The translations under genes and the position numbers were made by a program. This document shows positions 8,282 through 13,107 of a stretch of 64,000 nucleotides of DNA, in pieces. The notes beneath the pieces were generated by a model. It searched no databases, was not told the DNA's origin, and saw only the letters and a program-made list of their open reading frames with translations. Within the stretch, counting starts at the first letter, position 1. Every line of letters begins with the position of its first letter. This DNA is from a virus, in IMG/VR virus record IMGVR_UViG_3300035682_000005; one strand, given 5' to 3'.

Positions 8282-9748
8282 ATGACAACAGAACGTTTCT
8301 ACACGAATTGCACATGCATCGGCAACAACATTTTATATCGCGGCATTGAAGGTGGCAAACGAGTTTCAAAAAAGTTTACGTTCAAGCCAAAATTGTTTGT
8401 TCCAACGAACAAGCAAACAAAGTGGAAGACTCTCGATGGCAAGTTTGTTGATAAGATTGAGTTTCAAGATATCAATGATGCAAAAGAGTTCGTCCGCAAG
8501 TATGAAGGTGTAGACAACTTCGTGTACTACGGAAACACAAAGTATCAGTACGTTCATTTAGCTGATGCGTTTCCTCAAATGGTTGATTATGATTTCTCTC
8601 GCATTGTTATTGCCAATATAGATATTGAGGTAGCTTCCGAAGGCGGGTTTGCTCCACCTGAGAATCCGTTTGAAGAAGTGATAGCAATAACTGTTGAAAG
8701 CAATAACACATATGTTGTCTTTGGCTGCGGCGAGTTCACATCTTCAAAAGATAATGTCAAATACATTCGTTGTGAGAATGAAGCTGATCTTCTTCGACGT
8801 TTTATGGCGCATTGGGAACATCTTGCTCCAGACATTGTAACTGGCTGGAACGTTCAGTTCTACGATATACCGTACATGGTGAATAGAATCTCTCGTGTCT
8901 TTGGTGACAAAGAAGCAAAGAGAATGTCACCTTGGAAATATCTCTCAACTCGATCGGCAGCATACAAAGGTCGTATGCATCAAGTTGTTGAGCTTGTTGG
9001 CATCTCTACACTTGATTACATTGAAATGTACAGAAAGTATCAGCCTCGCCAAGAGAGTGAGAAGTTGAACTACATTGCATACGCAGAACTAGGTGAGAAG
9101 AAGATCTCATATGAAGAGTATGGTGACTTGCACACACTTTACAAGAGCAATTACCAAAAGTTTATCGAGTATAACATCAAAGACGTTGAACTTGTGCGCA
9201 AACTTGAAGAAAAGCTGAAACTCATTGAGATGGTTGTTGCACTTGCCTACGACGCCAGAGTGAATTATGTTGATACGTTTGCACAAGTGCGCATGTGGGA
9301 TACAATCATTTACAACCATCTCAAACATCAAAACATTGTGCTGCCACGATTAGTTCAAAATAACAAAAGTTCTGATTATGCTGGCGCGTATGTAAAAGAA
9401 GTTATTCCAGGTATGTATGAGTGGGTCGTCTCATTTGACTTAAACTCTCTGTATCCCAACTTGATTGCACAATTTAATATCTCACCTGAGTGTTTACTCA
9501 CAGACCAGTATCGCCATGTGACTGTTCAATCTCTTCTAGCAAAGCAAGTTGATACCAGCGATGTGAAGCAAAGTAATATTGGTCTTGCAGCCAACGGTCA
9601 TTGTTTTAGTAACGACAAGATTGGATTCTTGCCAGACATTCTCATGCGCATGTATGAAGACCGTAAGGTGTACAAAAACAAAATGTTGGTTGCTCAAAAA
9701 GAATTGGAGCGAGTAAAAGAAGAACTCCATCGTCGTGGATTGCAATAA
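8282..9748 (+). CDS. 43A: family B DNA polymerase, N-terminal half (gp43A: exonuclease, palm motif A, first fingers helix)
   Basis: DIEV, GWNVQFYD, YNIKDV, SFDLNSLYP; stops before motif B. Confidence 0.95.
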   Translation: MTTERFYTNCTCIGNNILYRGIEGGKRVSKKFTFKPKLFVPTNKQTKWKTLDGKFVDKIEFQDINDAKEFVRKYEGVDNFVYYGNTKYQYVHLADAFPQMVDYDFSRIVIANIDIEVASEGGFAPPENPFEEVIAITVESNNTYVVFGCGEFTSSKDNVKYIRCENEADLLRRFMAHWEHLAPDIVTGWNVQFYDIPYMVNRISRVFGDKEAKRMSPWKYLSTRSAAYKGRMHQVVELVGISTLDYIEMYRKYQPRQESEKLNYIAYAELGEKKISYEEYGDLHTLYKSNYQKFIEYNIKDVELVRKLEEKLKLIEMVVALAYDARVNYVDTFAQVRMWDTIIYNHLKHQNIVLPRLVQNNKSSDYAGAYVKEVIPGMYEWVVSFDLNSLYPNLIAQFNISPECLLTDQYRHVTVQSLLAKQVDTSDVKQSNIGLAANGHCFSNDKIGFLPDILMRMYEDRKVYKNKMLVAQKELERVKEELHRRGLQ

Positions 9749-9772
9749 AATAATCCAACTCCGATTATTTAA

Positions 9773-9801
9773 TTGATCCAATTTTTTTTGTTTGTTATAC
9801 T
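9773..9801 (+). promoter_or_regulatory. sigma70-type promoter of the inserted cassette
   Basis: TTGATC-17-TATACT with extended TG. Confidence 0.6.
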
Positions 9802-9814
9802 GTTTCTATAGGGT

Positions 9815-11365
9815 ATGTTACCCTTAACGTTTAAGTTAAACGGACAGTATATCATGAAATCCACTTCAATGATTCTGAATTCTCTTTTGGAGAATTCTGA
9901 TTTTCCAAACGCATCTCGTAAAACAATTACTCTTAGCGAATATTACGCACTTCGAGATTACATCGACACATCACCTGTTGAGTATCAGCGACCTTACGAT
10001 CCTAGTCGCGAAAATTCTGATGAAAAGGGACTTGTTAAATATGTGCTCGATCTTTTCTTTTACAGAGATGTAAAAGCAAACATGCTTCCTGCACTTGTAA
10101 TGCGACAGCTACACACAAATCAAATTGAGCAGCGCGTCGCCTCTGGCAGAAAGAATTGTAAAATACTTGAGATGACCGATGGTCAACATCGCACTGTCAT
10201 TATGTTTAAGTTATTGTCTGGTGAAATTAAAATACCATCTGACTACACAGTGATGTTTAATGGAAGAAGTGTTCTCATCGGCGATAAGACGATACCGGAT
10301 CTTATGCAATTGGGACAAAATTACAGAGAACTCATTGAGTCTCGTGTATTCTCCATGGATGTTTACCTGGATTATTACTACAACATTGCAGATGAACGAG
10401 CAGCAGAAATCTTTGCAGAGAGAAATTCTGGTGCGCCACAGTCTCGACAAAGTGTTCGTAATTGTCAAACACATAAACTGTGTGTAACAATTCGTTCTCT
10501 TGCCAGAGACATACCAGACTTTGATACGAAGTGTCATCCACTTATGGCTGTTGTACAAAACGCAAACGGAGAACTCATCGGAAAGTTCTATCCGGGTAAG
10601 ATGACAAGCGATCTTAATTTTGATGAGGATGTTGCTCGAACGTTAGCAACAATCATTGGTTACGATAAACTAGCCTCAGAAGATTCAATGAACATCGATC
10701 AAAATACACTCGATAGAATGTATACGTTGTATGGCAATCAATTGAATCAAAAATACTATGAGATGCTTATTGATGTTCTTGACTTTCAATATGAATTCTT
10801 AAAGAACATTCATGAGAACTTGCGCCGAGATCGAATTGATAAGAGCTTCTGGAATGCAATTCGATATATCTCAGTCATTCTGGTTCATAGAGCACACACT
10901 AGCAACAAATCATTATCGTTTGGTGTTGATAAGAGAGCAGCAACATTCTTGATGTGGAGAACACTCAACAAGTTTATTACACAAATGTGTTCTGTTCCTA
11001 AGAAAGATAGAGATGTTATTAAGCAGACTTTGTTTGAGCGAAGTCTTAACAAAATGAACTGGTATTCAAAAACAAGCGGTACTGGTCTTGCTGTAGTGTT
11101 TGCAGCACTCGACCGTTTCTTAAAGAAGAACAATACCAAGTCTCTTGGTGTTATATTGAAAGACAATCGAGAAACGTTTAACCCAAAGTTACGCGCAATT
11201 CTTTACACAGAACAGAATGGTAAAGATGCAATAACTGGACGTATGATAGATTACGAAGATGCTGTAACAGACCATAAGTTGTGTCGAGCCCGTGGCGGTG
11301 AAACAAAAGAACATAATGCTCAAGTTGTGGCTTCATGCACTAACAGCATGAAAAGTGTGAATTAA
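9815..11365 (+). CDS. DUF262 (ParB-like/GmrS) domain fused to C-terminal HNH nuclease; GmrSD-like
   Basis: PVEYQRPY, DGQHR, IFAERNSG; C-terminal DHKLCRARGG...N...N..KS. Confidence 0.75.
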   Translation: MLPLTFKLNGQYIMKSTSMILNSLLENSDFPNASRKTITLSEYYALRDYIDTSPVEYQRPYDPSRENSDEKGLVKYVLDLFFYRDVKANMLPALVMRQLHTNQIEQRVASGRKNCKILEMTDGQHRTVIMFKLLSGEIKIPSDYTVMFNGRSVLIGDKTIPDLMQLGQNYRELIESRVFSMDVYLDYYYNIADERAAEIFAERNSGAPQSRQSVRNCQTHKLCVTIRSLARDIPDFDTKCHPLMAVVQNANGELIGKFYPGKMTSDLNFDEDVARTLATIIGYDKLASEDSMNIDQNTLDRMYTLYGNQLNQKYYEMLIDVLDFQYEFLKNIHENLRRDRIDKSFWNAIRYISVILVHRAHTSNKSLSFGVDKRAATFLMWRTLNKFITQMCSVPKKDRDVIKQTLFERSLNKMNWYSKTSGTGLAVVFAALDRFLKKNNTKSLGVILKDNRETFNPKLRAILYTEQNGKDAITGRMIDYEDAVTDHKLCRARGGETKEHNAQVVASCTNSMKSVN

Positions 11366-11944
11366 ATGAATAAGCAAGTCAAACAGACAATCAAAGAGAT
11401 CAATCAAATTCTTACATCTCAATGTCCATCATACACGCTTGATGTTGAGTCGTTAAGAAATTTAGACACAATTCGTTCTGATACCAAATTGCGGTTTATT
11501 GAAACGACACATACGTTTGGAGAACCAAACGTTGTCACTCGAATGTACAAGCATTTTAAGTATCGTGGTCTGCCAAGCATTTCTACATCAAATCAGTTGA
11601 CGCTCTATCTTATTATTATGCGAAACAAAAAAACTGGTAAGTTACACTACAAGTTTGGCACAACAAAGTCTGTATATATTGCCGAGCGTTATCAAAAAAG
11701 ATCTGCAACATGGGAATTTTTTTGCGAAGCAGTCACATCAAGAGTTGGGGATAGAGATCAAATTCTTGCTCTTGAAAAGCGCATTAAAAAGTTTGCCACA
11801 AATAGTAAATTGATCCAACCTAATGTTGAAGATTTTATTTTTGGTGGCCAGACAGAAGTGCTAATATCAACACACAAGATTCCATCCGATAAATTGTTGG
11901 AGCTGTATCGCATTTTTAATGACACCGGCTTCGATGGATTGTAA
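11366..11944 (+). CDS. GIY-YIG superfamily nuclease-like protein
   Basis: LYLIIM..YKFGTT..ERY..LEKRI..GQTE; start abuts upstream stop. Confidence 0.6.
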   Translation: MNKQVKQTIKEINQILTSQCPSYTLDVESLRNLDTIRSDTKLRFIETTHTFGEPNVVTRMYKHFKYRGLPSISTSNQLTLYLIIMRNKKTGKLHYKFGTTKSVYIAERYQKRSATWEFFCEAVTSRVGDRDQILALEKRIKKFATNSKLIQPNVEDFIFGGQTEVLISTHKIPSDKLLELYRIFNDTGFDGL

Positions 11945-12000
11945 TCAAATAACTGAAAATAAGAATGACATTACACCCACATTAGTGTAATATTATCGTC

Positions 12001-13107
12001 ATGCAAGATCTCTCAAAACTTTCTGATGCTGAGTTAAAAGCATACGCACAAAAACTTTCGTTTGACGTATCAAAGTATCACAACTTCCAGTTGACAAAAA
12101 AGATTCAATTGAACTCTGCGTATGGTGCGATGGGTAATCAATACTTTCGTTTTTACGACATTCGTTTAGCTGAAGCTGTTACACTTTCTGGTCAGTTAAT
12201 CATTCAGTGGCTTGCTCGTGACATTAACAAGTACATGAACACAATTCTTAAAACAGAGAGTGTTGATTATGTAATTGCAATTGACACAGACTCAATTTAC
12301 TTGAATATGAAACATCTTGTCCACACAGTGTACAAAGACAAGCTACCAGATGACAAATCAAAGATTGTTGATTTCATCGATAAAGTTGCCGAAGAAAAGA
12401 TTCAAAAAGTTATTGATAAGAGTTGTTCTGAGTTGCGCTCATATATTAACGCTCGCTCACAAAAGATGCAGATGAAGCGAGAGTCGATTGCAGACAAAGC
12501 GATCTGGACAGCAAAGAAGCGTTACATACTTAACGTCTTTGATGTTGAGGGTGTTCGTTATGAGACTCCAAAGTTAAAGATTCAAGGCATTGAAGCAGTC
12601 AAGTCATCGACACCAGAAGTGTGTCGCCAAAAGATTAAAGACGCAATCAAGATTATTCTTACAAAAACGCAATCTGAGTTGCACAACTACATTGATGCGT
12701 TTAAGTCTGAGTTTAAGAGTCTGCCGCCAGAAAGTGTTGCGTTTCCTCGTGGTTGTAATGGTATCAGTACATACTCAGACCCAAAAGCTATCTATAAGAA
12801 AGGTACTCCAATTCATGTCCGAGGAGCACTAATGTATAACAGATTGATTAAAGACAAAAAATTGGACAAAAAATATCCTTGCATCCACGAAGGTGATAAG
12901 ATAAAATTCATTTACTTGCGTGAGCCTAATCCAACTCAAGAAAATGTTATTACAATGAGTGAAGAAGGTCTGCCTCAAGAACTAAATCTTCACAAGTATG
13001 TTGATTACGAATTGCAGTTTGAAAAAACGTTTGTTGATCCACTCAAGATTATTCTTGATTCAATAAACTGGTCAACTAAGAAGACAATGAGTTTTGATGA
13101 TTTATAG
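12001..13107 (+). CDS. 43B: family B DNA polymerase, C-terminal half (gp43B)
   Basis: KKIQLNSAYG (motif B), IDTDS (motif C), KKRY, clamp-binding-like tail SFDDL. Confidence 0.95.
   Translation: MQDLSKLSDAELKAYAQKLSFDVSKYHNFQLTKKIQLNSAYGAMGNQYFRFYDIRLAEAVTLSGQLIIQWLARDINKYMNTILKTESVDYVIAIDTDSIYLNMKHLVHTVYKDKLPDDKSKIVDFIDKVAEEKIQKVIDKSCSELRSYINARSQKMQMKRESIADKAIWTAKKRYILNVFDVEGVRYETPKLKIQGIEAVKSSTPEVCRQKIKDAIKIILTKTQSELHNYIDAFKSEFKSLPPESVAFPRGCNGISTYSDPKAIYKKGTPIHVRGALMYNRLIKDKKLDKKYPCIHEGDKIKFIYLREPNPTQENVITMSEEGLPQELNLHKYVDYELQFEKTFVDPLKIILDSINWSTKKTMSFDDL

Follow-up and report, generated by a model that had tools for sequence, protein, structure and literature searches.

A DUF262-HNH nuclease gene set between the two halves of a split DNA polymerase gene in an uncultured T4-like phage

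What kind of gene comes to lie between the two halves of an essential polymerase gene, and what keeps it there? The question is raised by a 2.25-kb interval (positions 9749-12000) in the 64,000-nucleotide stretch of viral DNA of IMG/VR record IMGVR_UViG_3300035682_000005 (hereafter, the window), where two abutting open reading frames (ORFs) on the same strand separate gp43A and gp43B, the N- and C-terminal halves of a family B DNA polymerase. The source of the window is an uncultured, distant T4-like myovirus; its gp43A is at most ∼47% identical to that of any cultured phage, with cyanomyovirus gp43 being nearest, and UvsX and gp41-like genes follow downstream of the polymerase. An initial annotation, made from the sequence alone, had read the interval as a GmrSD-like restriction gene (gene 1) tightly coupled to a GIY-YIG partner (gene 2), and the two-gene interval itself was confirmed by ORF, Pfam, and PHROGs analyses. 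Here, we show that gene 1 (9854..11365, + strand; 503 aa) encodes an N-terminal DUF262 (ParB-like NTPase) domain, a helical middle, and a terminal classical HNH domain, and that it is a maintained, quickly evolving gene. Our preferred explanation, held at somewhat less than even confidence, is that gene 1 specifies a fixed, selected, NTP-gated conflict nuclease that would cut nonself DNA, lodged in a slot made by homing endonucleases.

Gene 1 had no direct match in Pfam, NCBIfam, PADLOC, or PHROGs, even at an E value of ≤1, and neither gene of the cassette was matched in ∼50,000 phage genomes (megablast of the region and tblastn of both genes). Its orthologues form only six clusters (53 to 80% identity), all unnamed and from metagenomes, and PDB profile searches with the close orthologues alone (A1 and A2) returned only noise. 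When 1.8 billion representatives were searched exhaustively with phmmer, 35 distant relatives were found, mostly 450 to 570 aa long and aligning over their full length. Within the 38-member family alignment, 22 members matched PF03235 (GmrSD_N/DUF262) and 13 matched PF01844 (HNH), the remaining HNH-type matches being to HNH_5 (PF14279) or HNH_4 (PF13395). One of these relatives, P0015, is a direct full-length phmmer match to gene 1 (7e-11); its scores of 34.7 bits on GmrSD_N and 37 bits on HNH exceed the respective cut-offs of 33.2 and 21.4, and P0022 and P0023 likewise passed the Pfam gathering cut-offs. In the PDB, the family profile picked out HNH domains of the IscB/Cas9 type (1e-10). The domains of gene 1 were assigned through transitive homology and structure, not through a direct model match.

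The three DUF262 motifs and the terminal HNH noticed in the initial annotation were located at PVEYQRPY (9974-9997), DGQHR (10178-10192), and FAERNSG (10412-10432) and at the HNH residues DH (11270-11275) and N (11315 and 11342). The sole invariant columns among the 38 sequences, Q45, R113, N191, H474, N488, and N497, are exactly residues of these motifs, which argues that the motifs did not arise by chance. In the DGQHR and F..RN.G motifs, the D, G, R, and N residues are invariant or nearly so.

The AlphaFold (AF2) model of gene 1 was confident (predicted local distance difference test [pLDDT], 88; predicted template modeling score [pTM], 0.84) and supplied the structural match for DUF262 and HNH that had been named as a test of the initial reading, with BrxU, SspE, and Cas9 HNH as the counterparts. 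Foldseek placed BrxU, DndI, ParB, and SspE among the best matches and Cas9 HNH domains at a probability of 1.0; the top full-length matches were BrxU, DndI (rank 4), and SspE. Superposition with VIA-align gave a Z score of 8.0 on Cas9 HNH (root mean square deviation, 1.7 Å; 61 residues), 7.4 on BrxU (309 residues aligned, model residues 20-425), 7.0 on the SspE N-domain (162 residues), and ∼6.5 on ParB CTPase folds, values that are singly middling yet agree domain by domain with the sequence evidence. The polypeptide thus resolves into a DUF262/ParB-like NTPase domain (residues ∼14-195; 9893..10438, + strand) with the YQR, DGQHR, and F..RN.G motifs, an alpha-helical middle delineated by AF2 helices and the BrxU alignment (residues ∼196-435; 10439..11158, + strand), and a classical beta-beta-alpha-metal HNH domain (11159..11362, + strand) with D473-H474, N488, and N497. 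The fold, the catalytic His, and the metal-binding Asn that mark an HNH/His-Me finger nuclease are all present.

Likeness to known restriction systems goes a long way and then stops at the cutter. GmrSD is defined by DUF262 together with a DUF1524 domain carrying a DHIYP motif (PMC4619093, PMC8565348), and the nucleotide motifs of BrxU are DGQQR and RLFDS (PMC8565348). Gene 1 resembles GmrSD and BrxU in its N-terminal DUF262 domain with equivalents of both nucleotide motifs (DGQHR and IFAERNSG), in the long alpha-helical linker, and in the C-terminal His-Me-finger nuclease, and BrxU is its best full-length structural match. It differs in that the cutter is a classical HNH (PF01844/HNH_5, Cas9/IscB-like), which superposes on Cas9 HNH, instead of DUF1524 with DHIYP; in the motif variant DGQHR; and in its origin from a lytic T4-like phage rather than a bacterial defense island. 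PF07510 (DUF1524) was matched by none of the 38 family members. Gene 1 is therefore GmrSD-like but not a GmrSD family member, since its nuclease is not the defining one. With SspE and DndI, the phosphorothioate-sensing DUF262 nucleases, it shares the coupling of a DUF262 NTPase to a nuclease, but no ssp or dnd modification genes lie nearby, the nuclease domain is another one, and the protein is smaller. The GmrSD/SspE-type architecture originally proposed consequently stands for the overall build, which resembles GmrSD, BrxU, and SspE, and falls for the DUF1524 domain.

These comparisons bear on a strict version of our preferred explanation, counted within it and a sharpened form of the initial reading, according to which gene 1 would be a true GmrSD-type, modification-dependent type IV enzyme cutting the hypermodified DNA of competitors (e.g., DNA with hydroxymethylcytosine [hmC] or glucosyl-hmC). 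BrxU, DndI, and SspE as the best full-length structural neighbors point that way, as does the description of DUF262 as a modified-DNA sensor in characterized systems (PMC12065111). We nevertheless consider this strict version rather improbable: the DUF1524/DHIYP domain was tested for and is not present, and no PADLOC model matches.

The conservation of gene 1 at its site was assessed in a clade comparison set of five loci, the window and four IMG/VR contigs (L001 to L004), which is a small sample. Gene 1 lies between gp43A and gp43B in all five, down to 58% identity, and no empty-site allele was seen among them. The rest of the junction varies. It consists of genes 1 and 2 in the window and in L002; of gene 1, gene 2, and a dCMP deaminase gene in L001; of gene 1, an unrelated-looking 220-aa ORF, and a dCMP deaminase gene in L003; and of gene 1 only in L004, where two DNA methyltransferase genes follow gp43B. 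Gene 2 is thus found in three of the five loci, and its co-occurrence with gene 1 outside the window, another test named at the outset, was borne out by L001 and L002. Of the cassette turnover anticipated for this interval, gene 2 and the neighboring genes do turn over, but gene 1 is constant. Since gene 2 is optional while gene 1 is constant, gene 2 cannot be an obligate partner of gene 1 and is unlikely to mobilize it. The earlier idea of a two-gene cassette mobilized by its GIY-YIG member did not find support: L004 has gene 1 but no gene 2, and in L003 gene 1 has another neighbor. Tight packing in every interval makes cotranscription of the cargo with gp43B probable. In the window, the stop codon of gene 1 (TAA, 11363-11365) directly abuts the ATG of gene 2 at 11366, in agreement with the tight coupling first noted.

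Genes 1 and 2 are maintained, quickly evolving proteins under purifying selection. The ratio of nonsynonymous to synonymous substitution rates (dN/dS) was 0.085 to 0.09 for gene 1, 0.08 to 0.13 for gene 2, and 0.02 to 0.09 for the polymerase halves, with the dN of gene 1 being ∼4 times that of the polymerase. These values bear on the possibility that gene 1 is a decaying or neutral passenger kept only by linkage to essential half-genes. Its position between two essential cistrons would suit a passenger, but every copy is full length with unchanged catalytic residues, and even the two most similar copies show a dN/dS of ∼0.09, which leaves this explanation scarcely credible. For the same reason, the suggestion that gene 1 is retained by its position between essential halves became needless, as a dN/dS of ∼0.09 shows selection on the protein itself.

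The loci are also mosaic. L001 and L002 share a tract of 97 to 100% identity that runs from mid-gp43A through gene 1, with identity dropping in gene 2 and the dCMP deaminase gene being an indel between the two. Between the window and L001, identity is 0.92 to 0.94 in mid-gp43A, 0.75 to 0.83 in the last 500 nt of gp43A, and 0.68 to 0.81 in the cassette. Such shifts along gp43A and the cassette indicate exchange boundaries in and beside the cassette; similar recombination boundaries have been reported for nuclease genes (PMC10448857).

We then come to the slot itself. The upstream half, gp43A (8282..9748, + strand), comprises the exonuclease domain, motif A, and the first fingers helix, and matched DNA_pol_B_exo1 (8e-22), positions 17-147 of DNA_pol_B, and phrog_2062 (8.5e-143). 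The downstream half, gp43B (12001..13107, + strand), comprises the second fingers helix with motif B, the palm, the thumb, and a C-terminal tail, MSFDDL, and matched positions 149-413 of DNA_pol_B and phrog_1918 (1e-143). PHROGs keeps these two separate families for precisely such polymerase halves. As motif A (SLYPN) belongs to gp43A and motif B (KIQLNSAYG) to gp43B, the break falls at the tip of the fingers. Among 80 loci reaching through gp43B, 66 had an unsplit and 14 a split polymerase gene. Junctions of split genes outside the clade held a 63- to 69-bp spacer (L020, L024, L028, and L038), short ORFs (L018 and L045), a bona fide homing endonuclease gene (L009 and L023; phrog_655 at 1.4e-27), or purM (L067, 2789-3721; phosphoribosylaminoimidazole synthetase, phrog_1207 at 6.7e-183), and L043 carries an HNH ORF elsewhere in the polymerase gene. 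On a quick gp43B tree, the split state needs 7 changes, at least 5 of which are forced by well-supported branches. This repeated, polyphyletic splitting implies that the site was opened repeatedly by mobile endonucleases. The nearest neighbor of L009, which is split by the phrog_655 HNH homing endonuclease gene, is the unsplit L021, and their polymerases are near-identical; the two loci make a natural pair for the recent invasion of the polymerase fingertip by an endonuclease.

A comparable arrangement is known from Aeromonas phages 44RR and 25, whose gene 43 consists of two cistrons, 43A and 43B, separated by an intercistronic spacer and, in one case, by the endonuclease gene seg43(25) (Petrov et al. 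2010, reviewed in PMC2988022). The 43A and 43B cistrons, a free-standing GIY-YIG-family gene between them, and spacer-only variants (here L020, L024, L028, and L038) are common to both groups. In contrast to the Aeromonas phages, the constant occupant here is the DUF262-HNH gene, and the optional gene beside it, GIY-YIG-like in type, belongs to the T5orf172 kind. The loci thus form a natural series, from unsplit through a bare split, a homing endonuclease, and metabolic cargo to DUF262-HNH, in which breaks made by endonucleases become cargo slots.

The same series feeds the main rival explanation, namely that the product of gene 1 is a free-standing homing endonuclease in its own right, perhaps of a new DUF262-HNH class, which would cut the polymerase fingertip of phages lacking it and spread, or exclude their markers, via recombinational repair in coinfection. 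The junction is a proven homing-endonuclease site with a polyphyletic split (at least 5 forced changes), where sister lineages bear the phrog_655 homing endonuclease or HNH ORFs and where Aeromonas phage 25 has a seg-type endonuclease gene between 43A and 43B (PMC2988022). Gene 1 has an intact HNH active site, is a nuclease gene between conserved genes in 5/5 loci, is accompanied by recombination boundaries in and beside the cassette, such as that of the 97 to 100% L001/L002 tract (compare PMC10448857), and belongs to a virus-enriched family of sporadic occurrence. On the other hand, known homing endonucleases do not resemble a ∼500-aa protein that combines an NTPase domain with a helical body of the BrxU type, and gene 1 has no recognizable sequence-specific DNA-binding module. 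Its occurrence is not patchy, all five sites of the clade being occupied, and it is still under strong purifying selection between copies that are 58% identical. The slot also takes nonnuclease cargo (purM and dCMP deaminase), and location alone is therefore weak evidence for homing. Taken together, we regard homing by gene 1 as a real possibility, though an unlikely one.

The sporadic occurrence just mentioned concerns a wider family. Gene 1 appears to belong to a large, mostly virus-borne, uncharacterized DUF262-HNH family, on the evidence of ESM Atlas clusters, which we take as leads, not tests. In the Atlas, it adjoins viral (Uroviricota) clusters of unnamed 430- to 565-aa proteins with a full-length template modeling (TM) score of 0.6 to 0.78, one of them with 711 members. 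Another cluster has 957 members, mostly viral, with Nucleocytoviricota as the commonest phylum, HNH in 93%, and GmrSD_N in 79%; bacterial GmrSD_N+HNH clusters are also among the neighbors. The only cultured phage with a full-length relative of gene 1 is Vibrio phage QD01 (QD01_237, annotated as DUF262 superfamily), a singleton among ∼50,000 phage genomes. A DUF262 protein with a Cas9-like HNH, ORF32 of the T4-like cyanophage Sf-FS3, has been mentioned in passing (PMC12284385). Gene 1 has in common with these proteins (Sf-FS3 ORF32, QD01_237, and the Atlas clusters) the two-domain build and, for the group, a size of 430 to 565 aa, but identity is only 20 to 26% and none of them is characterized. 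QD01_237 sits among small accessory ORFs, whereas gene 1 lies inside a split essential gene. Searches for further loci of P0015, P0014, or P0022 in viral contigs found none, P0022 and A1 had no match in a collection of genomes from 185,579 species, and a metagenome scan added one short contig only. Our literature search found no functional study of viral DUF262-HNH proteins and none describing them as homing endonucleases.

To our knowledge, DUF262 nucleases have been known only as bacterial antiphage sensors of modified DNA (GmrSD, BrxU, and SspE). The gene described here, a relative of such sensors in which the nuclease module has been exchanged, belongs to a lytic phage, in which it is fixed and under selection. 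If phages do turn such a sensor-plus-cutter logic against competitors or hosts, type IV-like restriction extends to virus-virus conflict; if gene 1 is a homing endonuclease instead, it represents a new class with an NTP switch. Our preferred explanation, the conflict nuclease, would work as follows. The ParB-like DUF262 domain would bind and hydrolyze nucleotide; this domain and the helical body, arranged as in BrxU, SspE, and GmrSD, would control the C-terminal HNH cutter that replaces DUF1524. The fingertip split, opened time and again by free-standing homing endonucleases, would now serve as a cargo slot holding gene 1, which would be cotranscribed with the replication genes. The nuclease would then cut coinfecting phage DNA or host DNA that carries, or lacks, a feature marking off the own genome, while gene 2 would be an independent, optional homing-endonuclease-like neighbor of the T5orf172/GIY-YIG type that gene 1 does not require. 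NTP gating and DNA cleavage are suggested by homology to BrxU, SspE, and HNH enzymes, and nonself targeting is likewise a matter of inference. We read gene 1 in this way because it is fixed and long-lived, in contrast to the patchy homing endonucleases and gene 2, and because it has a BrxU-like sensor body; its low dN/dS, combined with a dN ∼4 times the polymerase value, is in keeping with a conflict gene that is functional and evolves fast.

Several observations weigh against the conflict nuclease. No PADLOC or other defense model matches gene 1, the DUF1524 domain that defines GmrSD is absent from its 38-member family, and the hydrolysis motif is DGQHR instead of DGQQR. Nor did the 64-kb window yield any DNA-modification genes, so no self/nonself mark can be named. 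The location of gene 1, finally, also fits a homing endonuclease.

The company that gene 1 keeps bears on yet another explanation, a host-takeover nuclease that would degrade the host chromosome for nucleotides in a role analogous to that of T4 EndoII/EndoIV. Cotranscription with replication genes in a tightly packed operon and the nucleotide-metabolism cargo (dCMP deaminase and purM) in the same slot of relatives are in keeping with it. However, there is no known way in which such an enzyme would spare the phage DNA, the window has no modification genes, and protein evolution this fast is more easily reconciled with a conflict gene than with a housekeeping nuclease; we judge a takeover function to be distinctly improbable.

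Gene 2 (11366..11944, + strand; 192 aa) encodes a probable T5orf172/GIY-YIG-type nuclease, a call that draws on modest evidence. It consists of an N-domain (residues 1-75), a nuclease-like core (∼76-170), and a C-terminal GFDx[LMI]. Its relatives are five proteins at 70 to 76% identity and one (P0048) at 41 to 44%, all unnamed. None of the 7 family members matched PF10544, PF13455, PF01541, or any other nuclease family in Pfam (E ≤ 10), whereas four of them independently matched the same C-terminal segment of phrog_681, annotated as endonuclease, at best with 5.7e-6. The ESM Atlas neighbors are phage T5orf172/MUG113 clusters (features, 0.92; structure TM, ∼0.5), and the invariant residues Y81, Y95-K-F-G, R108, and E137 are compatible with a GIY-YIG-like core, in which two Tyr-containing strands precede an Arg and a catalytic Glu within a beta-beta-alpha-beta-alpha fold. 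AF2 gave a weak model (pLDDT, 62), with which a wide fold search turned up only generic matches of the N-domain (Z ≤ 5.4). The GIY-YIG-like, homing-type character first ascribed to gene 2 thus retains the backing of phrog_681 and the T5orf172 clusters, if modestly, with Pfam contributing nothing.

The T5orf172 proteins, a subfamily of GIY-YIG, make up a large group of putative homing endonucleases that phages carry at essential genes, and 87% of the family has CapR, DUF723, or DUF4397 zinc-finger DNA-binding modules (Barth et al. 2023, PMC10448857). Gene 2 is like this family in its GIY-YIG-like Y...Y.FG.T...R...E pattern, its site at an essential replisome gene, its patchiness, and its position at a recombination boundary. 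It is unlike it in lacking a PF10544 match and in having a small N-domain in place of the zinc fingers. The patchiness is seen at a conserved gene, gene 2 being present in the window, L001, and L002, missing from L004, and replaced by another ORF in L003. That ORF (L003, 8248-8910; 220 aa) has no family match, and its hhalign comparison with gene 2 was not significant; the two have in common K[FL]G..K.VY..RF.K and GFD[GA]L (GFDAL in L003), and the L003 ORF may be a very divergent gene 2 homologue.

In T4-type phages, the C-terminal tail of the polymerase binds the sliding clamp. Gene 2 ends in GFDGL (11927-11941), and the GFDx[L/M/I]-COOH terminus is kept without exception, P0048 at 41% identity included. 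The polymerase tail in this clade is MSFDDL (13090-13104), against LDSFFA or LELFFG in sister clades. By analogy, gene 2 might dock on the sliding clamp via its polymerase-like tail. As a diagnostic, the clamp-tail motif was discarded, similar tails being present on a baseplate hub protein (LEDFFA) and PhoH (LGFD). A bolder and, in our estimation, doubtful proposal would see in DUF262-HNH proteins an unrecognized NTP-gated homing/exclusion class of phages and giant viruses, for which the fingertip is one site, with gene 2 recruited to the fork by a GFDx[LMI] tail mimicking SFDDL.

Further features of the junctions concern the deaminase and methyltransferase genes. The dCMP/cytidine deaminase gene (PF00383, 3.7e-26) lies inside the polymerase split at 10109-10600 of L001 and 8910-9401 of L003. 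It is absent from the whole window, and unsplit relatives have a homologue a few kilobases upstream of the polymerase. The two methyltransferase genes of L004 (3173-4660), found between gp43B and uvsX in that relative only, comprise one N6_N4_Mtase (1.2e-27) and one with a weak N6-adenine-like match. A link of the locus to DNA methyltransferases was considered and set aside, as both L004 methyltransferases and the deaminase are without a homologue in the window.

Upstream of gene 1, the best start is the ATG at 9854, which is conserved and was also chosen by gene callers for the 503-aa database entry. An ATG at 9815, which would yield 516 aa, lies within a small palindrome and is absent in L001 and L002. 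The initial annotation had seen gene 1 as self-promoted from 9773-9801. The site (+ strand) reads TTGATC-17-TATACT with an extended −10 TG and matches the sigma-70 consensus at 9/12 positions. Matches of this kind occur at background frequency here (16 found versus 17.4 expected), but both hexamers are positionally conserved in 5/5 loci, behind an invariant CCGATTATTTAATTG; a promoter at this position is plausible, if unproven. The invariant stretch spans 9757-9772, just upstream of the −35-like hexamer in the gene 1 leader. Farther downstream, the leader contains the small palindrome AGGGTA-N3-TACCCT (9810..9824, + strand), which L003 and L004 retain despite changes on both arms. The folding energy of this hairpin is unexceptional (z, −0.55 to −1.45). 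The palindrome or the conserved stretch may act as an operator, mark a site of processing, or influence translation, and the position is comparable to that of the intercistronic untranslated sequence of Aeromonas phage 44RR.

An Rfam search of the interval (E ≤ 1) detected neither a group I intron nor any other known RNA. The spacer before gp43B (11945..12000, + strand) has a weak promoter-like match (11965-11993) and a hairpin over the gp43B start codon. The hairpin (11965-12002) pairs ATTACAC with GTGTAAT, has an outer stem ATGAC/GTCAT, and overlaps the start codon (z of −1.53, not significant). At the same place, L004 has a different, stronger hairpin (z range for both, −1.5 to −1.8), and the hairpin at the gp43B start may control gp43B translation.

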